Virus record (IMG/VR): IMGVR_UViG_2529292985_000016
Span: 1 to 10,400 of that record
Direction: 5' to 3' (one strand)
Source of the DNA: a virus
Lineage: Duplodnaviria > Heunggongvirae > Uroviricota > Caudoviricetes
DNA length: 10,400 bases
Below the pieces are notes generated by a model that saw only the letters and a program-made list of their open reading frames with translations, was not told the DNA's origin and ran no database searches. The translations under genes and the position numbers were made by a program. This document shows, piece after piece, positions 1-10,400 of this stretch; the stretch's first letter is position 1, and every line of letters starts with the position of its first letter.

Positions 1-120
1 CTCTTCATACCAGTTTTTTCCGTCTTCCGAAAAAAGCCAGGTGACATCATATTGTTTTGTCAGCTGATATTGTTCCACGGTTTTCGGATTGCCCGCAGTA
101 ATATTTTTTAAATGCAACAT
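1..120 (-). CDS. Tail fibre assembly protein (Tfa), N-terminal 40 codons; gene continues past the left window edge
   Basis: ATG at 120..118 on the minus strand, 2 nt after the tail fibre stop (TAA, 125..123). The frame is open to position 1 and translates [40 protein letters not shown], which resembles from memory the N-terminus of enterobacterial Tfa (P2 gpG / Mu U type) chaperones. Position immediately after the fibre gene is the canonical synteny. Confidence 0.7.
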
Positions 121-122
121 TG

Positions 123-1508
123 TTAAACACTCGCCACGTTATACCAGGTGCCATTAATCAGTTTCTGAAGCGGGCGGTAATACACGCCGTTGACGTTATC
201 CGCTGAGTCACGGCCGGTATCCGATATCGCTATCCCTGACAGCCCGTGTCCCGAAGGTGCGCGAAATCTCCACGAAACGGTGTTACTGCCGGGGCTGTAA
301 TACATTTCATGGCCATACCGTACATCCTGTACCCCCTCTGTTCGATATTTATAGCGGGCATCGAAGTTTCCGTAATTTAACGGAATTACCTGTCCGTTTA
401 CGGCGAACGTGATGCTGTTATCTGTATTCCTCTGGCTGAAAAAATGCCAGCCTGAATCATCGCCAAGCTCTGCAACAACAGACCAGGATGGATTACCCCA
501 CAAATAAAACGCTGCATTTTTCGTGGAGTTGTTGGCGCTGGATAACGTGAATTTTCTGGCAGTTCCGGCCTGAATATTCTTAAAAACAATAGCCACTCCA
601 TTCTGAAAGCGGAATACACGCTGACTATTAGCATAAACATCCAGAATACCGTCTCCATTCTGTTTAAATCCGGTGTCATTATCACCAAGAACAATTGAAT
701 TCCCCCCCAGGGCGTTCTGAACGCCGATACCCAGCGCACCATTGACCTGCGAACCACCGCCAACAGACACTTTATGCGACATGGATATTTCACCCGTCCG
801 CAAATTAATGGTGAACGGGCGCAGGGGACCAATATCGCCATTTTCCCCCTGACCTTCACTGGTGGGAATAAGGTGCAGGCACTCTTCCGAACGACGAAAA
901 ATCAGGCCAAAAGCTTCGTTGAAAATCCTCAGCGCATTAACACCACGGATTTTCAGCTCTCCGGTTATTTTATCGCCTTCCCGATGAACATAGCGTTGAT
1001 CTGACTGCTCTTTACTGTAAACCTGAAGATTATCCCGTGCCGTCCCTTTATTCTGAAGGTCTGACAGATTGTTCTTCTGCCGCAGGAATATCCTTTTCGG
1101 ATCCTCAAGAAGATTTACCCAGCCCGCACTGTCGGAGCCTTCAGGATCGGTCAGGTTATCGTCTGTGGTATTCAGCCAGACCGCTGTTGTTGCGACTCCG
1201 GCGAGAATGGCTCCTTTTGCATATCCACCAATGGCCCCCGCAAAACCGGCATTATACGTGTACAAACCGCCAGCTTGGGCGAACCGTATTGCTGCGGTAA
1301 TATCGTACATCAGACCGTTAAAATCCTTGCCGTGTGGCGGTATACCTCCCGCTGAGACCGCTGTCATGGTCACCGGAGGAAAACCTGAATCATACGCAGC
1401 ATTACCGCTCTCTCTGGTCTGCTGTGTCGCCTTGTCCGGGATACGGTTTTTATCTCCGGTACTCGCAAAGGGGACCGCCAGCTGGCGGGGTTTATCACTG
1501 GCCTTCAT
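123..1508 (-). CDS. Tail fibre protein (461 aa) with a P2 gpH / Mu S-family C-terminal region
   Basis: Intact ORF. Start ATG 1508..1506 is preceded by AAGGAG (1521..1516) with a 7-nt spacer. It overlaps the upstream gene's stop by 14 nt and is followed by the Tfa gene. The C-terminal half contains the block [42 protein letters not shown]...[11 protein letters not shown], which I recall as the conserved C-terminal region of P2 gpH-type fibres. Confidence 0.85.
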
Positions 1509-1820
1509 TACGGGACTCCTTTAAAACTACTGAAACATAAACACCCGGCGGGGACGGCAGTGCACCCGACGACTGGATAATCGCCAGTTCTGCCAACGAG
1601 AGCGCGGACTCAAAGATGTAACTCATCCTCAGCCCACCATTATTCAGAACATAAGCCCGCCGTTTTTTTCCGAACATAAATCTCAGCATCCGGTTAATAT
1701 CCGGAACGGAACAGTCAGTAATGTTCGACATGGCTTTCATCAGTATCAGCCGCCGGTATACAGCATCAGACAGGTCAACAGTCCGGGTATCCGATTTTCC
1801 GTTGTAAAACGGTGCCTGAT
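1495..1820 (-). pseudogene. C-terminal fragment of a baseplate gene (P2 gpI / Mu gp48 position) interrupted by IS2
   Basis: The frame is continuous with the N-terminal fragment at 3152..3436 once IS2 is removed (…PCPFNQ|APFYNGKSD…). Stop TGA at 1497..1495. The six-frame ORF 1495..1848 starts 28 nt inside the IS2 left end, so its first 9 codons (MSGDSGGQS) are IS-derived and artefactual. Confidence 0.75.
1816..1820. repeat. Left copy of the 5-bp target site duplication (CTGAT) flanking IS2
   Basis: CTGAT lies immediately outside the IS2 left end (1816..1820) and is repeated immediately outside the right end (3152..3156). IS2 is known to make 5-bp duplications. Confidence 0.85.
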
Positions 1821-1861
1821 TAGACTGGCCCCCTGAATCTCCAGACAACCAGTATCACTTA
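1821..1861. repeat. IS2 left terminal inverted repeat (IRL)
   Basis: IRL TAGACTGGCCCCCTGAATCTCCAGACAACCAGTATCACTTA aligns imperfectly, with a 1-nt offset, to the reverse complement of the right end TGGATTTGCCCCTATATTTCCAGACATCTGTTATCACTTA. Shared blocks are GCCCC, TCCAGACA and TATCACTTA. Confidence 0.8.
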
Positions 1862-1911
1862 AATAAGTGATAGTCTTAATACTAGTTTTTAGACTAGTCA
1901 TTGGGGTACAG

Positions 1912-2277
1912 ATGATTGATGTCTTAGGGCCGGAGAAACGCAGACGGCGTACCACACAGGAAAAGATCGCAATTGTTCAGCAGAGCTTTGAACCGGGGAT
2001 GACGGTCTCCCTCGTTGCCCGGCAACATGGTGTAGCAGCCAGCCAGTTATTTCTCTGGCGTAAGCAATACCAGGAAGGAAGTCTTACTGCTGTGGCCGCC
2101 GGAGAACAGGTTGTTCCTGCCTCTGAACTTGCTGCCGCCATGAAGCAGATTAAAGAACTCCAGCGCCTGCTCGGCAAGAAAACGATGGAAAATGAACACC
2201 TCAAAGAAGCCGTTGAATATGGACGGGCAAAAAAGTGGATAGCGCACGCGCCCTTATTGCCCGGGGATGGGGAGTAA
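1912..2277 (+). CDS. insC: IS2 transposase OrfA (InsC), 121 aa
   Basis: ATG at 1912 (the listed ORF begins at an upstream GTG at 1867). Translation [56 protein letters not shown]…[16 protein letters not shown] matches IS2 InsC as I recall it. Stop TAA at 2275..2277. Confidence 0.9.
2229..2235 (+). other. IS2 programmed -1 ribosomal frameshift heptamer A_AAA_AAG that produces the InsCD (OrfAB) transposase
   Basis: AAAAAAG at 2229..2235 sits in the X_XXY_YYZ register of the insC frame (codons GCA AAA AAG TGG). The insD frame is -1 relative to insC and overlaps it. This is the known IS3-family mechanism. Confidence 0.7.
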
Positions 2278-3140
2278 GCTTAGTCAGCCGTTGTCTCCGG
2301 ATGTCGCGTGCGCAGTTGCACGTCATTCTCAGACGAACTGATGACTGGATGGATGGCCGCCGCAGTCGTCACACTGATGATACGGATGTGCTTCTCCGTA
2401 TACACCATGTTATCGGAGAGCTGCCCACGTATGGTTATCGTCGGGTATGGGCGCTGCTTCGCAGACAGGCAGAACTTGATGGTATGCCTGCGATCAATGC
2501 CAAACGTGTTTACCGGATCATGCGCCAGAATGCGCTGTTGCTTGAGCGAAAGCCTGCTGTACCGCCATCGAAACGGGCACATACAGGCAGAGTGGCCGTG
2601 AAAGAAAGCAATCAGCGATGGTGCTCTGACGGGTTCGAGTTCTGCTGTGATAACGGAGAGAGACTGCGTGTCACGTTCGCGCTGGACTGCTGTGATCGTG
2701 AGGCACTGCACTGGGCGGTGACTACCGGCGGCTTCAACAGTGAAACAGTACAGGACGTCATGCTGGGAGCGGTGGAACGCCGCTTCGGCAACGATCTTCC
2801 GTCGTCTCCAGTGGAGTGGCTGACGGATAATGGTTCATGCTACCGGGCTAATGAAACACGCCAGTTCGCCCGGATGTTGGGACTTGAACCGAAGAACACG
2901 GCGGTGCGGAGTCCGGAGAGTAACGGAATAGCAGAGAGCTTCGTGAAAACGATAAAGCGTGACTACATCAGTATCATGCCCAAACCAGACGGGTTAACGG
3001 CAGCAAAGAACCTTGCAGAGGCGTTCGAGCATTATAACGAATGGCATCCGCATAGTGCGCTGGGTTATCGCTCGCCACGGGAATATCTGCGGCAGCGGGC
3101 TTGTAATGGGTTAAGTGATAACAGATGTCTGGAAATATAG
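2235..3140 (+). CDS. insD: IS2 transposase OrfB (InsD), 301 aa; expressed as an InsCD fusion by -1 frameshifting
   Basis: ORF of 301 codons with stop TAG at 3138..3140. It contains the IS3-family catalytic-core-like region (…[50 protein letters not shown]…). It overlaps the 3' end of insC in the -1 frame. Confidence 0.9.
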
Positions 3141-3151
3141 GGGCAAATCCA
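3111..3151. repeat. IS2 right terminal inverted repeat (IRR)
   Basis: Imperfect inverted match to the IRL at 1821..1861; the element ends …GGGGCAAATCCA at 3151. Confidence 0.8.
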
Positions 3152-3156
3152 CTGAT
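3152..3156. repeat. Right copy of the 5-bp target site duplication (CTGAT) flanking IS2
   Basis: Identical to 1816..1820. Removing IS2 plus one CTGAT copy rejoins the two gene fragments in frame. Confidence 0.85.
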
Positions 3157-3436
3157 TAAACGGACAGGGATCATCCATTACCGGGGTGTCCATCCTGGAC
3201 TCGCTGAAGCCCAGGTAATTAAAATCGTCCTTTACCGTCAGCCGGCGACTGACACCCACAATCTTTCCCCAGACATCAAGACCATACTTTTCTGCGGTAT
3301 CGATGTTCCAGATAAGACCATAAAAATCACTGATAAAACTGTCGGGGGAAAGCGCTGCGTTAAAGCTGTTAATGAGGGCATTGAGTCGGGGGCTGGCAGC
3401 ATACTGCGCAAGCACAGTGGCAGCCACATTCTGCAC
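3152..3436 (-). pseudogene. N-terminal fragment (95 codons) of the IS2-interrupted baseplate gene (P2 gpI / Mu gp48 position)
   Basis: GTG start at 3436..3434 is preceded by AGGAGG (3448..3443) with a 6-nt spacer and lies 1 nt after the J-like stop (TAA 3440..3438). After codon 95 the frame runs into the IS2 right end, adding a 28-aa IS-encoded tail before a stop at 3065. The reconstructed intact protein would be about 202 aa. Confidence 0.75.
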
Positions 3437-3437
3437 G

Positions 3438-4675
3438 TTATGCCTCCTGGAGTTTCACACTGATATCCGACACATCCAGAACCGGAATCTCATCTATCCC
3501 GAAAGTGACAGCCGTTGTCCATGACGAACCGTCACGGCTCACAGTAAGGCCCAGAATATCAATATGTTCCGGATCGGTTTTGTAAATGCCGGCATAGTAG
3601 CGCCCGGCAGAGACAACAGAGGCAACCCTTGCCCGCAGACCACCATCTGTACCATTAAATGCGTCCAGCACGGATTGCTGTACCTGTCGGGTAATATCTG
3701 AAGGCAGGTAGTCACTTTTTTTCAGCGTCACACTGACATGCAGACTGACGGGTTTGAGTGTCTGCCAGCTGATTACGTATTCAGGATACGGCGGATCGTA
3801 CTCCTTATCTGCAACAGTGAACGTTGTGTTGCCATTCATATCAATACCCGGCGGAGCCTTACGCCAGATGGCCGCCGCGATATCTGCCGGGCTGCCGCCG
3901 TACACGCCAACATAAAGCGAACCGGGTGTTAATGGATACTGACTGACTCCGGCTTTTTGTTCTGTTTTTTTCGGATTATGGGTGACGTAAACATCCACCA
4001 CGTTTTCTACCGTGGAGAGTATTTCACCCCGGATGGCTTCCAGAATATTCCGGGCATTACGGGCAACTGAATTACGTCGGCGGTTTTCAAAGTCCGCACG
4101 GGTTTCCTCATCGCTGCCCGGCACACCGGCACGGGCGTTAGTGACACCTGACCAGCCAGGTATTGCCTTATAAATTTTATTCAGCGTCCCCACAGGACAG
4201 CCGACGGGGCCGGTGGACAAATTCAGAAATACCGCATCAACCTGCCCTGATGCGCCGATAGTGACGTCTGACTGACATACTTATAACCGGCCTCATCCTG
4301 CCCCATACTGCCCGCCGGGATCAGCGTGCCAACCAGCCCGGTACAGGTCGCTGTTACTGTCGTACCTGTGGCCCCACGGCGCTCCAGGAAATAAATCCTG
4401 CCTATTGCATCCTGAAAGCGACCACTGGAAAAGTCAGGGTTGATCTGGTTAACGATATACAGCAACTGATCGTTTTTATCCGCAATAATGGCGCTTTCGC
4501 TGGATGCAAGTTGTCCCTGCGGACTGCTCAGACTGGTACTCATGGCCCCGCCCAGCGCCGCCGAAAAATCAGCAAGCCTGCCGCTCAGAATATCCGCTTC
4601 ATCCGGCACATTCAGCCCGCTATCCGAAATCTGTACAGCGGGCACTGCGGTAGAAAAAGATTTATTTTCACTCAT
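3438..4675 (-). pseudogene. Baseplate J-like protein gene (P2 gpJ / Mu gp47 family), split across two reading frames by an apparent frameshift near 4262-4280
   Basis: The upstream ORF (4223..4675, ATG at 4675 overlapping the preceding stop as ATGA) ends …GYKYVSQTSLSAHQGRLMRYF*. The downstream ORF (3438..4220) has only a TTG start with no Shine-Dalgarno motif, and its frame is open upstream to 4280 (VCQSDVTIGASGQVDAVFLNLSTGPVG…). The two frames overlap at 4226..4280 and read as one J-like protein of about 413 aa if a +1 (or +4) nt change is made. The switch point lies on a TGAC/CTGA tandem repeat (4268..4276). Confidence 0.6.
3443..3448 (-). promoter_or_regulatory. Shine-Dalgarno motif (AGGAGG) for the gpI-position gene
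   Basis: Minus-strand AGGAGG lies 6 nt upstream of the GTG start at 3436 and supports the non-ATG start. Confidence 0.6.
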
Positions 4676-5028
4676 AGCAGTACCGTAAAAATGTCATTAT
4701 TGGTATCTGTAATACGCAGCACACCTGTTACTGTCCGGGTTTGATCAGCTGTGACCTGGCAGACAGCGGCGCTCACGGTCGGCAGTTTAAGTGCTTCCTG
4801 TTGCAGAGTGGCATTCACCAGTTGTGTGCCGGGCCAGTGTCCGAGGATGCGTGGCCAGTAAGGTATGCCAGCCGTTGAGTCGTACCAGCACTCCCCCAGA
4901 AAAGTACTGCACGCACACGCCACATCCTGAGCTACCGCATGGGGATTATCAGTAATGGCAAGATTTCCGGTATCATCAAGCAGGATATCCCATGTCCCGG
5001 TGTCAAGAAGAAGTGATCGTGACTGCAT
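4672..5028 (-). CDS. Small baseplate protein (118 aa) at the position of P2 gpW / Mu gp46; family not recognised
   Basis: ATG at 5028 with an AGGAG Shine-Dalgarno motif 5 nt upstream (minus-strand ACAGGAGAAAAC ATG). Its stop TGA overlaps the next start as ATGA at 4672..4675. It sits between the spike and J-like genes. Confidence 0.6.
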   Translation of the reverse strand: MQSRSLLLDTGTWDILLDDTGNLAITDNPHAVAQDVACACSTFLGECWYDSTAGIPYWPRILGHWPGTQLVNATLQQEALKLPTVSAAVCQVTADQTRTVTGVLRITDTNNDIFTVLL

Positions 5029-5040
5029 GTTTTCTCCTGT

Positions 5041-5631
5041 TTACCGGGATCCCTGCGTGGTTGAGCCGCCGGACTCAACGCCGCCGTGAACGTGGTTTCC
5101 AAAATCAATACCCCCGATGTTCGAACCGCCGGAAAGCCTGGACTGCCCGGTAACGTCAAGCCCCTTACTGACGGCGGTATCGCCGTTCAGCGCAATTTGT
5201 GGTGAGTTAACGGTGAAGCTTTTCGGCGCATTAATCACCCCCTCAGGCGCGGATATCTCCACTTTCCAGGGAGATACAATCCGTATCTGGTTGTCATCAA
5301 ATACCACAAACTGGACGGGATCACCGTTGAGCACGCCACCCAGCCAGATGGCAAGAAAACCGATATCCCCCACATGTGGCGGGATAATCACCGCATTACC
5401 GCCCCCCTGTAGTCGCCATACGGGAATGTTATAAATCACCTCATGTTCAACCGGGGAACCGTCTGCTGCAACGCCCATTACCATCGGTCGGGCCTCAATA
5501 AATCCCTCTTCCACGGCTACCACCCGTCCCAGAGTGATAAACGCATGACGTCCGAGAAACTGCCGCAGCATAAAGTCCTGTGCATTGATTTCGCTGTTCA
5601 CGTCTGTCGGGTTACTGAGTGGTTGTGCCAT
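5041..5631 (-). CDS. Baseplate central spike protein, gpV-like (196 aa)
   Basis: The C-terminus …SGGSNIGGIDFGNHVHGGVESGGSTTQGSR carries a His-x-His apex motif, as in the P2 gpV spike (HTHKH…GGTTG). Size and position (upstream of the W-position and J-like genes) fit the Mu-type baseplate order. Start ATG at 5631 overlaps the upstream gene by 20 nt. Confidence 0.7.
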   Translation of the reverse strand: MAQPLSNPTDVNSEINAQDFMLRQFLGRHAFITLGRVVAVEEGFIEARPMVMGVAADGSPVEHEVIYNIPVWRLQGGGNAVIIPPHVGDIGFLAIWLGGVLNGDPVQFVVFDDNQIRIVSPWKVEISAPEGVINAPKSFTVNSPQIALNGDTAVSKGLDVTGQSRLSGGSNIGGIDFGNHVHGGVESGGSTTQGSR

Positions 5632-6481
5632 TTTCTTCAGCCCTCATCATGGTACAGTTGGAACTCCACGGACCGCCCACGGTTCGCGAAGTAATGGTGT
5701 GTATCACCCCTGTGATCGTATAATCGCCCGTCATATCAGGCAGTGACGATTCCAGATGCGCTGGCCTGCCAGTAAAGAGATCGGGGCAGAATATCGTGGT
5801 GGCGCTGAGTCCGGTCATGGTGTAAACCGGATAGCCAGTCAGTCCGTGATCCGGCGAAATCAGTACCGGCGGAATATTCCGGTTCTGCCCTTTCGGCCAG
5901 ATGGTGACTTTCTCCACATTCCCCAGATCAATGTTAATATCGGCGGCTGAAGCGACATCCAGCATTTGTTGTACAACATTACCGGAAAAATGCGGGTCAG
6001 ACAGACTGCGGCTGACCCCCTGGTTTTCAAATCCAAGCCCGACAGTTGACGCCAGCGCACGGATAATATCTGCAACCGCAACATCGCCCTTTGCGCTGAA
6101 ATCTGCCGCCGGCTGATTACGCAGATTAAAATGAATCTGTCCTGTCAGAATGAGCGGAATATCCGGCGCCTGGTTGTAGTCGGCGTATGCATCAGTAATA
6201 TCACCTTCAAAAATAAGCCGCCCGTCGGCCCACAGCCGCATTTTATTTTCGGTACTCTGCTCCTGTCGCCACACACCGCGCCAGCTTAAATTCGTCATAT
6301 GCGCCGGTGACATTCCCCAGATATACAGCGTGATTTGTGTACCAGCCACCCCTCCATATACGGCAATACTGGCAAAACAGCTTGCGTCGGTAATGGTCAG
6401 CATATTGCCCTGGCCATTACCAAACGTTCGTCCGTCTGAAAGAGTGAACTCCACCGTTATTTTACGTTGTCTGTAGCTCAT
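5612..6481 (-). CDS. Tail/baseplate protein (289 aa), unassigned family; occupies the hub-protein position upstream of the spike
   Basis: ORF whose start ATG (6481..6479) overlaps the upstream stop as ATGA. Placement between the tape measure and spike genes. No motif I can assign with confidence. Confidence 0.55.
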
Positions 6482-6780
6482 ATCAGTTCCTCAGGTAACA
6501 GCCAGTAGAGCCGGTACCGGGATCCGAGCCCCCGCCAGTCAGGGTCACTATTCCCCTCCGTGTCGGTAAAAAACAGGTCCCCCTGAAACGGCAGGTATCC
6601 GTACCGGACAATCCGGTTATTATTCAGACACAGCACGCCATACAGGCACGGTTCACCATTAACAATGATATCGATATACATCCCCGTAGTACGCTGATTC
6701 AGGCGAATGGTGCAGACCTGAGCGCCCAGTGTCACCGTAAACTGCTGGGCTTTAACGGGAGATAAAACAATTTCCAGCAT
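6478..6780 (-). CDS. Small tail/baseplate protein (100 aa), function unknown
   Basis: Start ATG at 6780..6778 overlaps the upstream stop as TGATG; its stop overlaps the next start as ATGA. Translational coupling inside the tail operon argues it is a real gene. Confidence 0.55.
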
Positions 6781-7490
6781 CAGGTGATCCCCCTGTTCGT
6801 GGCGCTTCGTCTGTCAGCGTCTGACGGTTGTGTCACCGACGCCGTAACTGGCTGCGTTTTAACCGATGCGGCCCCTTTTGCTTTATCGTTGTCCGTGGGA
6901 GACGACTTATCCGTACTTCCCACTGACACCTCTCCTGTATTCATTACGGTCTGAAATACCGCAGTAACCGTCAGTAAGGTCGGACCATTATTACTTCGCA
7001 TTCGGTAGTCATATTTCACAAGGTCGCAGGATGTCCATGTCTTGTCCGGCGTCTCAATATCGTAGAGTCCTGCCGTGGTACGCATCCTTTCAAGCGTTTC
7101 CAGCACATTCGTCCGCGAGGTGGTGGAAAAATTTGTCAGGTTCGGGACGGATCCGGAAAAGGCCGTCCACCCCTCTACAGTGAAAGTCACATGCAGTTCC
7201 GGCGATCTCTGGATTTTATTAAAGGTGGTATAAGCCCCCTGCTCCACGGGGACGGTGGAAACAGAAGCCTCCGCGCCCACCTCAACGACAACAAAAGAAT
7301 CCGGGGAGAAAGGTTTGCCACCCTTCTGATGGGCACCTGCCGGATCATTCCGTGCGTAATAAATACCGAATGACGGTGCCAGTACACTATTAATGAGTCC
7401 CAGGACACAGCCGCCACGAACTGCACTCAGTACGTTACTTTCACTGAGCGAAAAGTTATTCAGGGAAATATTATCGAAAGAAAAACTCAT
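6780..7490 (-). CDS. Tail protein (236 aa) immediately downstream of the tape measure gene; family not recognised
   Basis: Start ATG at 7490..7488 overlaps the tape measure stop (TGA 7489..7487) as ATGA. The position corresponds to the distal tail / baseplate-initiator proteins of contractile-tail phages. Confidence 0.6.
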
Positions 7491-9508
7491 CCTGTTACCC
7501 CGCTGGAATAAACCGACACAAGCGCCGAATTCGTGATACGCCGACGTGCGTCATCGGTAATACCCTTCACATTGTCCGACGTTGTGGTGACATTCAGTGT
7601 CCCGATATGCGTGGTTTCCGTTACGGTGGACTGCGATACAGGCGCAGGATGGAGCGACCGTATGGCCATTGCCGCACCCGGATAAGGCAGGTTCGCCAGC
7701 ACCCGCGGAATATAGTTGCGGGTCTCCTCCGGAGCAGCAGCCAGTCCCTTACGCTGAACATTTCCCTCTCCACAGTTATATGCCGCCAGAGCCTTAGCCA
7801 GATCGCCATGAAAAAAACGTATCAGGCCACCAAGTTTTCTCGCGGCGGCATCAGCGGCTTTTTCGGGATCAAAGGCATCGTTCCCCCTCAGACCAAATTC
7901 ACTGGCCGTCTTCGGCATGAACTGAAACAGTCCCATCGCACCAGCAGGTGAGACGGCAAACTGATTACCACGGGATTCGGTGATCGCAACGCTGCGCAGC
8001 AGTCCGGGCGGCAGGTTATATTTTTCCTCCAGTTGAGACAGTTTCGGTTGCAGCCAGCCTAACAGGGCTTCCCCGGTCTTCGTCGGTCGCTGGCGGTTTT
8101 GCATGGCATTACCGAGTTTTTCCTGCGTCGCACGCATACCCTGTAGCCAGGATTCACCGAAGGCTGCTTCCCTCCCGGTTGCCTGAGAAGCCTGAGTATC
8201 CAGCATGCCCTGCTGCCATACTGTGGGTGATTGTGCCCGGGTGATGTTGCCAGGCTTTTCTCCGGCATCCAGTTTTGTCTGATACGTCTCCATCTCTTTC
8301 TTATTGAAAAAGAAAGTCCCGTCTGAAGCCCAGAAAAAACCATGTGAATCCAGCCAGTCCTTATTTTCCCTGCCAACAATGGATGTCAGTAATCCGTCAA
8401 CAACCGGGTAAAGCGCCGTTATCGCAAAAAGAAGGCCTCCGGGGCCACTGAGGGCTTTTGTCAGCCCCCGCACCCATGACGCCACTTTCAGCCCGATCAG
8501 CGTAATAATGACATTCTGCCAGCCCCCCAGTTCTCCGGCAGCCTTATTCGCTAGGGAGGCCACTGACTCAACGTCATTCAGAAATGTGGTGATAAACCTG
8601 TTCACTTCCTCCGGATGTTGCTGCATCCAGTCACCGAGTGTCTCCAGCCAGTGGCTGAGCTTCAGCGCGTACGGCATCAACGCGGTGCTAATCGTCATCC
8701 CGATGCCGGACCAGGTCTGATCGAGCTCAACAAGCTCTTTTCGTAGCTTACGGGCCAGCGCTGTACGCCCCGGCGTAACCTGCGAACGGGAAGTAAATTC
8801 GTCCACATCTTTCAGCGCATGACCGGAGCCAAGAAACTGCTGTCCGGCATAACTGAAGCCCAGCGCGTTGCCGTAGGCAGTTTGTTCGGACTTTGTCAGT
8901 CGCGGAAAAATAACCGCCAGCTTGCGCATGATGGCTTCAGTGCTGTCAGTATTTAAATCAACACTAATGCCCGCCCTGGCTGCAACCTGAAACAAATCCT
9001 GTAACACAGGATCAAAGGACCTTCCGGCTCTGAAGGCCGCTTTTGCATTTGCAAGCCGGGAAAATGCCCCAGACATTTCCCCTTCATCAACATTATTTGC
9101 CCGCGCAGCCCGTAACCATCCGTCCAGATTTCTGGCCTTCATGCCAAAAGCATCGGATTCCACGGACAGACGGTTCAGATCACGGGCAAAACCTGTTACC
9201 AGGTTCTTCAGCCCCCCCAGCGTCAGACTGACACCCGCAAGAGCCAGAATCTCGCTACGGATTCCTGAAAAAAAACGGGACGCCCGTTTCCCGGCATCTT
9301 CCATTCGACGGGCCGTTTTATCAGCATCTTTTCCGGTTTTTTCCAGTGATTCACTGGTTTTCTTCTGTCCCTGACTGAATGTGTCAGCGACACCTTCCAT
9401 CACCGTCGTGAGCCGGTTAAGGGCAGCATGTACTGCCTGTTCCCCGGCAGTAAAGTCCCTGTCATCAATCCCGAGGGACAGAACAAGCTCATCAAGTACC
9501 TGCGCCAT
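7487..9508 (-). CDS. Tail tape measure protein (673 aa) with a C-terminal soluble lytic transglycosylase-like domain
   Basis: ATG at 9508 preceded by AGGAG (9520..9516) with a 7-nt spacer. It lies immediately downstream of the chaperone frameshift pair. It has an alanine/charged-rich N-terminal half, a hydrophobic central segment (NVIITLIGLKVASWVRGLTKALSGPGGLLFAITALYPVV), and the SLT motifs …AITESRGNQFAVSPAGAMGLFQFMP…AYNCGEGNV at residues ~505-585. Confidence 0.8.
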   Translation of the reverse strand: MAQVLDELVLSLGIDDRDFTAGEQAVHAALNRLTTVMEGVADTFSQGQKKTSESLEKTGKDADKTARRMEDAGKRASRFFSGIRSEILALAGVSLTLGGLKNLVTGFARDLNRLSVESDAFGMKARNLDGWLRAARANNVDEGEMSGAFSRLANAKAAFRAGRSFDPVLQDLFQVAARAGISVDLNTDSTEAIMRKLAVIFPRLTKSEQTAYGNALGFSYAGQQFLGSGHALKDVDEFTSRSQVTPGRTALARKLRKELVELDQTWSGIGMTISTALMPYALKLSHWLETLGDWMQQHPEEVNRFITTFLNDVESVASLANKAAGELGGWQNVIITLIGLKVASWVRGLTKALSGPGGLLFAITALYPVVDGLLTSIVGRENKDWLDSHGFFWASDGTFFFNKKEMETYQTKLDAGEKPGNITRAQSPTVWQQGMLDTQASQATGREAAFGESWLQGMRATQEKLGNAMQNRQRPTKTGEALLGWLQPKLSQLEEKYNLPPGLLRSVAITESRGNQFAVSPAGAMGLFQFMPKTASEFGLRGNDAFDPEKAADAAARKLGGLIRFFHGDLAKALAAYNCGEGNVQRKGLAAAPEETRNYIPRVLANLPYPGAAMAIRSLHPAPVSQSTVTETTHIGTLNVTTTSDNVKGITDDARRRITNSALVSVYSSGVTG

Positions 9509-10120
9509 TTCTGTTCTCCTGTATCACCTGTTCGTTATGGGCATCCACATGAATTATTTCCAGCAGATCCCATAAGTCCTGCACACCAAGGACAGAATCC
9601 AGTTCAGCTTTTGAAGCCTTACCGGAGGAGATAACGGTCGCAATGGTACGGGGAACATTAACGTAATCCACCACCCCGAACGGTCTGTCGGGGTCGAGAT
9701 AACGCGGGGGGATATCTAGCTGACGACGGTAGCGAAAAAATCCACATGCAGCTTAAAGACCTCCGCACGCAGATTAAGACGGGTAATGATTTCTTCAATA
9801 TCCTCTTCAACAAGCGGTCTCCGGATGCTGCGTTTTTTCGGATCGGGAACAAACTGCACACAGTCCATCATTTCATCCATCAACGGACGCGCCTCATCAG
9901 GCGGAATTTTCGATAATGCTTTCAGCCCTTCAAGGGCAAGCGCAGCCATCCCCAGACTACGAACATCATCCGGTAACTCCACGCCACCACGCCCCATTGC
10001 CATAATGGCACGCATCGCCCACCATTCCGCCTGTGAGGCAGACATTTCGGTAAGATGAAATACCTTGCCCTTATCCCGTCCCTGACCTTCAATAGTGATA
10101 AATTTCTCTTTACGGGCCAT
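9492..10120 (-). CDS. Predicted -1 frameshift fusion product of the tail assembly chaperone (gpGT / gpE+E' analogue, ~208 aa)
   Basis: The -1 frame is open from 9752 to a TGA at 9494..9492, overlapping the tape measure start by 17 nt. Shifting at T_TTT_TTC (9740..9734) continues …VDFF into RYRRQLDIPPRYLDPDRPFGVVDYVNVPRTIATVISSGKASKAELDSVLGVQDLWDLLEIIHVDAHNEQVIQENRNGAGT. The extension has no start codon with a Shine-Dalgarno motif of its own. Confidence 0.55.
9516..9520 (-). promoter_or_regulatory. Shine-Dalgarno motif (AGGAG) for the tape measure gene
   Basis: Minus-strand GATACAGGAGAACAGAA ATG gives a 7-nt spacer to the ATG at 9508. Confidence 0.6.
9716..10120 (-). CDS. Tail assembly chaperone (134 aa; analogue of lambda gpG / P2 gpE)
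   Basis: ATG at 10120 preceded by GGAGG (10135..10131). It lies directly upstream of the tape measure gene and ends with a slippery heptamer followed by an overlapping -1 frame ORF that runs to the tape measure start. Confidence 0.7.
   Translation of the reverse strand: MARKEKFITIEGQGRDKGKVFHLTEMSASQAEWWAMRAIMAMGRGGVELPDDVRSLGMAALALEGLKALSKIPPDEARPLMDEMMDCVQFVPDPKKRSIRRPLVEEDIEEIITRLNLRAEVFKLHVDFFATVVS
9734..9740 (-). other. Candidate -1 programmed ribosomal frameshift slippery heptamer T_TTT_TTC in the chaperone gene
   Basis: Minus-strand GAT TTT TTC GCT: the heptamer is in X_XXY_YYZ register with the chaperone frame, 6 codons before its stop, and the -1 frame is open downstream to the tape measure start. 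Confidence 0.55.
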
Positions 10121-10400
10121 CAGTTAAAAACCTCCGGAGTAATGGTTTCCCACTCAATAACCGCCTGCCCTGGCTGCAACGTACGAGCTGCATCAGGCAG
10201 CGCTTTCCATTGTTTGAGTACGCCATTCACGCAGGTATATTTACGGCCAATCGCCGGAAGCAGGACGACAGCGTTACAACGGAATACAGCCCGACTGGCC
10301 CGGATGTGGTTGACCAGGTATCAAAAATATCCCGGCTGGGGGAATCCGGCATGATATGAAACGTCTGGATAATGTTGCTGTACACAAATCCCGCGGACAG
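10120..10400 (-). CDS. 3' end of an upstream tail gene (tail-tube position), partial at the window edge; reading frame unresolved
   Basis: One minus-strand frame is open from the window edge down to a TGA at 10229..10227 (…MPDSPSRDIFDTWSTTSGPVGLYSVVTLSSCFRRLAVNIPA*). Another is open from 10320 to a TGA at 10122..10120 that overlaps the chaperone ATG as TGATG (…TLQPGQAVIEWETITPEVFN*) but has no credible start codon. Either the gene ends at 10227 with a 107-bp spacer, or it is frameshifted near 10320. Confidence 0.35.

Follow-up and report, generated by a model that had tools for sequence, protein, structure and literature searches.

An IS2 element within the DUF2612 baseplate-wedge gene of a probable prophage remnant in Shigella

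The locus described here raises the question of whether an IS2 element lying in a phage tail operon is a recent arrival that silenced a working baseplate, or an older lesion that stands among several others. The window, by which we mean the whole stretch of 10,400 nucleotides that was analysed, belongs to a tailed-phage record (Caudoviricetes; IMGVR_UViG_2529292985_000016). The preliminary description had read the insertion as a recent, simple transposition with no later rearrangement, which should inactivate a baseplate protein and probably exert polarity on the fibre gene.

Identity of the element and of the interrupted gene

Direct reading of the sequence between the two CTGAT copies gave an element of 1331 bp with the 5' end TAGACTGGCCCCC and the 3' end GGGGCAAATCCA. 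The features of the element and of the gene around it are as follows.

1821..3151, plus strand: complete IS2, 1331 bp, from alignment and NCBIfam models; transposase genes on the plus strand, tail operon on the minus strand
1821..1862, plus strand: left terminal repeat (IRL), 42 bp, length from PMC3299598; same sequence as in the EIEC IS2 copies
1912..2277, plus strand: insC (orfA), 121 aa, with the substitution L96H; Pfam HTH_Tnp_1
2229..2235, plus strand: A6G programmed -1 frameshift site, AAAAAAG, read from the sequence
2235..3140, plus strand: insD (orfB), 301 aa, rve integrase core, with the substitution V23M (V131M in OrfAB)
3111..3151, plus strand: right terminal repeat (IRR), 41 bp, length from PMC3299598; identical in all copies compared
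1816..1820, strand not applicable: left target-site duplication, CTGAT, from sequence reading; single copy in empty sites
3152..3156, strand not applicable: right target-site duplication, CTGAT, from sequence reading and empty-site comparison
3152..3436, minus strand: 5' part of the split DUF2612/Phage_Wedge1 gene, opening with GTG at 3436 and 95 codons long, from sequence reading
1495..1820, minus strand: 3' part of the same DUF2612 gene; stop and fibre gene start overlap by 14 nt

The element had been named an IS2 of 1331 bp with intact insC and insD, the A6G site and both terminal repeats, and this was borne out, as all coordinates were correct and the models scored above their cut-offs. 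When 1821..3151 was compared with IS2 references, it aligned from end to end without gaps, with 10 mismatches to IS2A of K-12 (IS3 family, IS2 group; in yaiX, NC_000913.3 381260-382590; likewise 1331 bp, 99.2% identity) and 5 mismatches to the IS2 copies of EIEC. The OrfAB product scored 236.3 bits against the NCBIfam IS2 model for TnpA (cut-off 229), 722.1 bits against that for TnpB (cut-off 597) and 276.4 bits against the NCBIfam transpos_IS3 model (cut-off 160), and the transposase carries the Pfam domains HTH_Tnp_1 (in insC), HTH_21, rve and rve_3. The A6G motif is the reported frameshift signal of IS2 (PMC3219604), and a -1 slip at AAAAAAG yields an OrfAB of 409 aa without an internal stop. 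The terminal repeats, reported as 42 bp for IRL and 41 bp for IRR in IS2 (PMC3299598), were found as imperfect arms at 1830-1862 and 3111-3143 that are 79% complementary. The exact InsD protein is already annotated in S. dysenteriae (VDG86089.1, EIQ57808.1).

The window IS2 and the K-12 IS2A share the insC/insD overlap, the A6G -1 site, the imperfect repeats and the 5-bp target duplication, and the host gene was left in two pieces as was yaiX in K-12. The two copies differ by ten substitutions, five of which occurred in none of the E. coli copies searched. A BLAST match to APEC O78-type genomes, in which IS2 lies in an autotransporter gene, seemed to carry the similarity past the element (query 1804-3163), 17 nt on one side and 12 nt on the other; it was rejected as an alignment artefact, since the flanks, when read directly, are unrelated.

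It had also been claimed that the element splits a baseplate gene, and that removal of the element and one CTGAT restores a reading frame of about 202 aa. The minus-strand join of 3436..3157 and 1820..1495 gave 606 nt in one frame, encoding 201 aa plus the stop. This joined protein matched Pfam PF11041, labelled Phage_Wedge1, over residues 5-190 (220.2 bits, cut-off 23.5, E 2.7e-65), and the RefSeq name for a fragment is "baseplate wedge 1 family protein". By sequence homology alone, it also matched the chain "baseplate wedge protein gp17" of PDB 7kh1 (E 1.9e-7) and gp89 of 9zd7. GP075 of phage K8 is reported as a further example of a DUF2612 baseplate protein (PMC9887876). The window gene resembles the wedge proteins of E217/PB1-like myoviruses, such as K8 GP075 and 7kh1 gp17, in its PF11041 domain and in its place between baseplate J/gp47 and the tail fibre; unlike them, it is split and would be non-functional. 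Among isolated phages, Pantoea PA-1 and Klebsiella phages came closest, with only 54-59% amino-acid identity to the DUF2612 protein, and no close isolated phage with an uninterrupted gene was found in the phage collection, in which the best identity was 59%.

The 5' fragment of the gene reads on into the IRR as far as a stop at 3065-3067, which gives a chimeric reading frame of 123 aa (95 residues of the gene and 28 encoded by the IS). Exactly this junction product has annotated entries from both S. dysenteriae and S. boydii (VDG86088.1, CAM4315690.1).

Target site and spread of the insertion

The junction 30-mers run from GGTGCCTGAT into TAGACTGG and from CAAATCCA into CTGATTAAAC. The empty site with one CTGAT was found in E. 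coli RMDEC364, S. flexneri SFBU1023 and E. coli ECMA0423 (loci L002, L017 and L018), and the rejoined gene aligned without gaps to the uninterrupted alleles of EIEC E. coli and S. flexneri at 99.0-99.7%. The search for an uninterrupted allele thus succeeded in both species, and about 300 contigs in public databases encode the exact joined protein, which is named there as a DUF2612 protein. As the uninterrupted alleles carry CTGAT once and the window carries it at 1816-1820 and 3152-3156, the pair is, on this allele comparison, a true target-site duplication and not a chance 5-mer, in agreement with the preliminary description. A scan for the empty site returned two genomes. The exact left junction had 0 matches among the GTDB species representatives, as would be expected if GTDB folds Shigella into E. 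coli.

Identical junctions were observed in at least 15 assemblies of S. dysenteriae and S. boydii, species names being those of the source databases, and the same junctions are probably present in about 200 drafts. Alignments of more than 99.7% ran contiguously over one or both junctions at loci L007, L009-L014, L021, L025 and L027, of which L009 and L010 are without the left target copy and L013 stops within the element. The junctions are also kept in three genomes with a nested IS2 (L008, L023, L028), and CP026840.1 is 99.94% identical to the window over 1..9679.

It could be supposed that the IS2 consensus was collapsed or misplaced into a draft contig, as the window is probably a complete draft contig (among the contigs that encode the fibre protein, the longest has 10,400 bases) and a repeat of 1.3 kb usually interrupts an assembly from short reads. 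However, the same junctions occur in the independent multi-megabase contigs CP026805, CP026807, CP026825, CP026832, CP026840 and CP045784, the 5-bp duplication agrees with the single-copy empty site, and the copy-specific substitutions described below recur in CP026840.1, so that an assembly artefact is scarcely conceivable.

A recent hop of IS2 in a single strain, which would have knocked out the baseplate and silenced the fibre by polarity in an otherwise functional operon, agrees with the perfect target duplication, the clean rejoining of the flanks, the identity of the joined protein to an extant intact allele, and the intact reading frames, slip site and ends of the element. Against this, many S. 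dysenteriae and S. boydii assemblies carry the same insertion, 1-5 substitutions separate its orthologous IS2 copies from one another, even the nearest of the 24,027 E. coli IS2 places reaches only 99.6% identity with the window IS2, and the operon bears three other lesions, two of them clade-wide frameshifts. Taken together, the data make a recent hop very unlikely. The transposition was indeed simple, with its 5-bp duplication, while the claim that it was recent failed on the clade-wide junctions and the diverged IS2 copies. Likewise, the claim of no later rearrangement holds for the window and not for the locus in sister strains, in some of which a further IS2 is nested (duplication CGTGA) and in others of which 46 bp are deleted beside the left end.

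On the compared sequences, the insertion is not strain-recent and appears to have been inherited by a whole S. dysenteriae/S. boydii clade. The identical junctions suggest vertical inheritance from one event; a possible alternative to such descent from a single origin is that recombination carried the whole locus horizontally from strain to strain.

The five substitutions (1905G, 2198A, 2301A, 2339T and 2552G) were found in 0 of the 24,027 E. coli IS2 places, and the closed genome CP026840.1 carries the same five. They change the Shine-Dalgarno sequence of insC from GGAG to GGGG (1905), cause L96H, cause V131M in OrfAB, and include two synonymous changes. The InsC protein with L96H was found elsewhere only on two unrelated metagenome scaffolds with different IS2 backgrounds, and the InsD protein with V23M only at this same locus. 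For these reasons the substitutions look specific to this copy, a view based on protein searches rather than whole-genome scans, and the possibility that they mark a multi-copy sub-lineage of IS2 was set aside. L96H falls in the leucine-zipper-like motif of OrfA/OrfAB, and it was documented that L97H, at the neighbouring residue, abolishes IS2 transposition (PMC3219604). With an altered Shine-Dalgarno sequence and a substitution beside the essential L97, the window IS2 might be a naturally disabled copy.

Further lesions of the tail operon

On the minus strand the genes of the cluster are, in order, those for tape measure/SLT, a Dit-like protein, plug, hub, spike, sheath initiator, baseplate J, DUF2612, fibre and Tfa. 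The features that bear on the effect of the insertion are given below.

1..120, minus strand: beginning (120 nt) of the gene for tail-fibre assembly (Caudo_TAP), which runs on beyond the window; mapped to the gene at 13317..13862 of locus L007
123..1508, minus strand: gene for a tail fibre of 461 aa, the next one downstream of the split gene; match to PHROG tail-fibre families at E 6e-124
3438..4675, minus strand: pseudogene of baseplate J/gp47, next to the split gene on its upstream side; (CTGA)3 to (CTGA)2 at about 4268
5041..5631, minus strand: spike gene with an 87-bp in-frame deletion (29 codons) between 9-bp direct repeats CAGATGGCA
10121..10400, minus strand: 3' part of a tube-like gene; 1-bp deletion, CCCGGG to CCCGG, at about 10302, causing a frameshift

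The strands and the 14-nt overlap confirm that IS2 lies antisense to the tail operon and immediately upstream of the fibre gene, the protein of which is annotated in exactly this form in S. dysenteriae. The fibre-assembly gene mentioned in the preliminary description is present, with only its beginning inside the window.

The 4-bp frameshift in the baseplate J/gp47 gene leaves reading frames of 150 aa and 260 aa, and the intact gene of 1242 nt is found in loci L001 and L002. In the spike gene, one copy of the 9-bp repeat survives at 5345-5353; among the sister Shigella loci, this deletion is found only in CP026840.1. The 1-bp deletion in the tube-like gene is common to the sister Shigella loci. 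Outside the window, the sheath/tube region of the sister genomes is interrupted by IS1 and IS66, which also lie on either side of the tail cluster, and no head genes were found in the 10 kb on each side of these loci. The prophage thus appears to be a decayed remnant that could no longer make a tail.

It was to be expected from its position that the insertion disrupts the gene, and it does; the consequence drawn from it was overstated, as three lesions break the operon independently. The insertion would abolish the wedge function, and may exert polarity on the fibre gene. Since the same operon has two frameshifts and the 87-bp spike deletion, an effect of IS2 on tail function is not separable from theirs, and polarity on the fibre would matter little in a prophage unable to build a tail in any case. 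It is reported that the IRR of IS2 supplies the outward -35 element of a junction promoter (PMC3299598, PMC9330008); in the window IS2 this element is directed away from the fibre gene. A consensus scan of 1400..3600 for promoters and terminators gave nothing that exceeded what shuffled sequence would yield, and no promoter directed outward at the fibre gene, and an Rfam scan of the window gave no match.

Across Shigella and EIEC lineages, the module holds three independent antisense IS2 insertions and a fourth nested in the DUF2612 one. The others interrupt the fibre gene in VL40 and a second fibre gene in O121/VL7S7, and these and the nested copy likewise have 5-bp duplications (TTTTG, GTCAT and CGTGA, respectively).

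It might be proposed that IS2 was the first and selectively favoured hit, disabling the tail module and locking a useful prophage region into the chromosome, with the other lesions following as neutral decay. The three insertions, all antisense in the distal tail module of different lineages, and the ipaH gene adjoining the module in EIEC relatives would fit such a course. However, no genome was found with IS2 and without the 4-bp frameshift, or the reverse, both being present in 10 of 10 places, so that these places favour neither order of the two. Moreover, random IS expansion could give three insertions in nine or more IS2-rich genomes, the same orientation in three of three has a probability of about 1/4, and in those Shigella loci that were examined the stretch downstream of the fibre genes had no ipaH call. 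We regard a favoured first hit as extremely improbable. A broader proposal, that the distal tail module is a repeated target of IS2 rather than a site of random decay, through a hotspot (for example, DNA curvature) or selected silencing of baseplate and fibre, with the window IS2 perhaps disabled, seems unlikely.

Place of the insertion in Shigella gene decay

The assignment to IS2, the target duplication, the empty site, the occurrence in many genomes and the accompanying lesions are direct observations, and the reading that accounts for them with high probability is one ancestral IS2 insertion in the wedge gene, vertically inherited and one of several decay events in a dead prophage. By this account, IS2, a copy-out/paste-in element of the IS3 family, would have entered the DUF2612 gene once, at about codon 95, in a myovirus-type prophage with a tail module like those of E217, Pam3 and BcepNY3, and would have duplicated the 5-bp CTGAT. 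The event is placed in the ancestor of the S. dysenteriae and S. boydii clade, from which it would have passed on by vertical descent. The wedge protein would be cut after 95 residues, followed by 28 encoded by the IS, and 1.3 kb of untranslated antisense IS2 would now separate the baseplate genes from the fibre gene. Such an insertion would be typical of IS expansion during Shigella genome reduction.

Hawkey et al. (2020, PMC7373316) reported that five IS have expanded in every Shigella species, namely IS1, IS2, IS4, IS600 and IS911. The present case agrees with the pseudogenisation described there, as a commonly expanded IS2 was fixed in a lineage and adds to gene loss, and as the prophage was also struck by IS1, IS66 and, in EIEC, IS600. 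That survey dealt with populations of S. dysenteriae type 1, S. sonnei and S. flexneri, whereas this locus belongs to S. dysenteriae and S. boydii genomes outside it. The insertion is an ordinary, already catalogued case of IS-driven gene decay in Shigella and involves no new mechanism. Its importance beyond annotation is little, and it opens no unresolved question. For annotation, the locus is a DUF2612 baseplate-wedge pseudogene, interrupted by IS2, in a defective prophage, and its junction can be used as a lineage marker of the S. dysenteriae/S. boydii clade.

The IS2 element and the split baseplate gene

The insertion comprises the following features, the CTGAT copies by direct reading of the sequence.

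1821..3151, genes on the + strand: IS2 element, 1331 bp, beginning TAGACTGGCCCCC and ending GGGGCAAATCCA
1816-1820 and 3152-3156: the two CTGAT copies
1912..2277, + strand: insC, 121 aa
2235..3140, + strand: insD, 301 aa

A slip site, AAAAAAG, lies from 2229, and a -1 slip gives a 409-aa frameshift fusion (OrfAB) without an internal stop. The terminal repeats are imperfect, with arms at 1830-1862 and 3111-3143. The intact insC and insD, A6G site, terminal repeats and flanking CTGAT of the preliminary description were all read in the sequence. The element aligned end to end and ungapped with IS2A of E. coli K-12 (10 mismatches) and with copies from enteroinvasive E. coli (EIEC; 5 mismatches). 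OrfAB scored above the curated NCBIfam cut-offs for both IS2 TnpA and IS2 TnpB and contained the Pfam domains HTH and rve. By every testable criterion, the element is IS2.

When the flanks (3436..3157 and 1820..1495) were joined on the minus strand, they formed 606 nt in one frame, encoding 201 aa and a stop, close to the 202 aa or so first proposed. Nine complete E. coli genomes of enteroinvasive type carry the same prophage tail module at ~99% identity, and ipaH adjoins the locus in all nine. In EIEC strain RMDEC364 the gene is uninterrupted (606 nt) and the empty site reads …AAAACGGTGCCTGATTAAACGGACAGGG…, with one CTGAT exactly at the IS2 position of the window. When species-representative genomes were scanned for exact matches, S. 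flexneri SFBU1023 and E. coli ECMA0423 also proved to have this empty site. The joined 606 nt aligned ungapped at 99.0-99.7% with intact ORFs in four genomes, and the exact joined protein is deposited on ~300 contigs as a DUF2612 domain-containing protein. The CTGAT repeat is a true target-site duplication. The reading therefore withstood both of its tests, namely alignment with IS2 and a contiguous gene in relatives matching the rejoined flanks.

The gene was rightly called a baseplate gene. The joined protein matched Pfam PF11041 (DUF2612 / Phage_Wedge1) with an E-value of 2.7e-65 and is homologous to the PDB 7kh1 chain named baseplate wedge protein gp17 (E 1.9e-7), and RefSeq names a fragment of the split gene 'baseplate wedge 1 family protein'. 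Its operon position agrees, as the minus-strand order is tape measure with SLT domain, Dit-like, plug, hub, spike, sheath initiator, baseplate J/gp47, DUF2612, tail fibre and fibre assembly. A DUF2612 protein of Pseudomonas phage K8 has been investigated for a putative role in the baseplate wedge and in receptor binding (PMC9887876). The closest isolated phages show just 54-59% identity in the DUF2612 protein.

Distribution and later history of the insertion

Window proteins were found as exact sequences in Shigella dysenteriae, and the closed genome CP026840.1 matched window 1..9679 at 99.94%. A 123-aa chimeric ORF begins at the DUF2612 start and reads into the IS2 right end. It has been annotated as an exact sequence in both S. 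dysenteriae (VDG86088.1) and S. boydii (CAM4315690.1), and it lies on multi-megabase contigs in at least eight assemblies. Contiguous alignments at >99.7% cross one or both junctions in ten sister S. dysenteriae/boydii loci (L007, L009-L014, L021, L025, L027), and the nested-IS2 genomes L008, L023 and L028 also retain junctions. For the 150-aa product of the adjacent frameshifted gene, 221 blocks are indexed; in 188 of these the longest contig is 5-10 kb, the size expected if a draft assembly breaks at IS2, as in L013. The junctions and chimeric ORF shared by many genomes indicate that the insertion has been passed down within a clade and is not confined to a single strain. Public genome records already include and annotate the IS2/DUF2612 locus.

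The insertion had been called recent, and this is not supported, as the same junctions occur clade-wide and the orthologous IS2 copies have since diverged. Five IS2 substitutions of the window and CP026840.1 (1905, 2198, 2301, 2339, 2552) were absent from all 24,027 IS2 places examined across 5,426 E. coli genomes; the top identity there was 99.6%. Sister genomes carry differing subsets of substitutions at 2013, 2301, 2552 and 2969. Among the orthologous copies (window, L007-L014, L021, L025, L027), 2013 alone, 2552 alone, both and neither were all found, so that no single tree fits. This pattern points to homoplasy or to gene conversion between the IS2 copies of one genome.

The absence of later rearrangement is true of the window, which retains the original simple state, but not of sister loci. 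A second IS2 lies inside the first in L008, L020, L023 and L028 (duplication CGTGA, at ~2958-2962 of the window). In L009, L010, L022 and L024, 46 bp beside the IS2 left end are missing, the left CTGAT included (window 1775..1820), and this loss looks like an IS-adjacent deletion.

The structural features of the window IS2 are all intact, while three of its five substitutions could affect function. Through A->G at 1905, the insC Shine-Dalgarno becomes GGGG in place of GGAG, V131M lies in OrfAB, and L96H lies within the leucine-zipper-like motif, adjoining L97. It was reported that L97H abolishes IS2 transposition (PMC3219604). Because L96H was also found in two unrelated IS2 backgrounds (metagenome scaffolds), it may be tolerated.

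Consequences in a decayed tail operon

The IS2 cuts the wedge protein short after 95 residues and, as first described and as read in the sequence, is antisense to the tail operon. The stop of the split gene and the start of the fibre gene share a 14-nt overlap, an arrangement that suggests translational coupling and makes polarity on the fibre gene plausible. The known outward -35 of IS2 sits in the right end (PMC3299598, PMC9330008), which in the window faces away from the fibre gene, and no outward promoter directed at the fibre gene emerged from a consensus scan. The operon, however, is also broken at other sites.

Directly upstream of DUF2612, baseplate J/gp47 (3438..4675) is frameshifted by (CTGA)3->(CTGA)2 at ~4268, and two ORFs (150 aa and 260 aa) remain. 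The 4-bp contraction is present in all sister Shigella loci and absent from the EIEC relatives. The tube-like gene (10121..10400 and beyond), named 'phage tail fiber protein' in RefSeq, is frameshifted by the loss of 1 bp from a short G run (CCCGGG->CCCGG, ~10302), a deletion common to the sister Shigella loci. The spike gene (5041..5631) has an 87-bp in-frame deletion between 9-bp direct repeats CAGATGGCA (window 5345..5353), by which 29 codons are lost and the protein falls from 225 aa to 196 aa. The window and CP026840.1 alone have this deletion, and it is therefore younger than the IS2 insertion. Outside the window, IS1 interrupts the tube/sheath region of sister genomes, IS66 copies lie on either side of the tail cluster, which adjoins zitB-pnuC-nadA, and the 10 kb of sequence inspected on each side showed no head gene. 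Taken together, these lesions indicate that the IS2 is one among several in a defective prophage.

The window is probably a complete draft contig, since the longest contig carrying the fibre protein measures 10,400 bases. In sister genomes an IS1 transposase gene call (L007 2194..2891) has an end ~60 bp from the position that matches the window right end, and in some of them the fibre-assembly gene, near the left end, is likewise interrupted by IS1.

IS2 in the tail modules of EIEC and Shigella

Independent IS2 insertions were observed in EIEC relatives: in the fibre gene of VL40 (L001 3494..4824, duplication TTTTG) and in the second fibre gene of O121 201805972 (L003 3003..4333, duplication GTCAT). 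Both were read as antisense, in the same orientation as the window IS2, and the BLAST pattern of VL7S7 matched that of O121.

Within the stretch of the tail-fibre gene (123..1508) that encodes the C-terminus, 396-970 has no match in VL40 and O121, and 704-970 has none in RMDEC364. The 3' end beside the unmatched part shows only 87-93% identity, while the remaining module shows ~99%; the tip of the fibre resembles an exchanged cassette. After the fibre genes, these three EIEC loci carry ipaHa or ipaHb (a T3SS effector gene), while the examined Shigella loci instead have an IS66-family element and then zitB-pnuC-nadA.

IS2 is among five insertion sequences reported to have expanded in all Shigella species, driving pseudogene formation (PMC7373316). 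As an observation the preliminary description is confirmed, and its interpretation is supported in part. The present insertion is nothing new in kind and its biology is already known; only the repeated antisense IS2 insertions in the tail module across lineages and the mosaic IS2 divergence are mildly curious.
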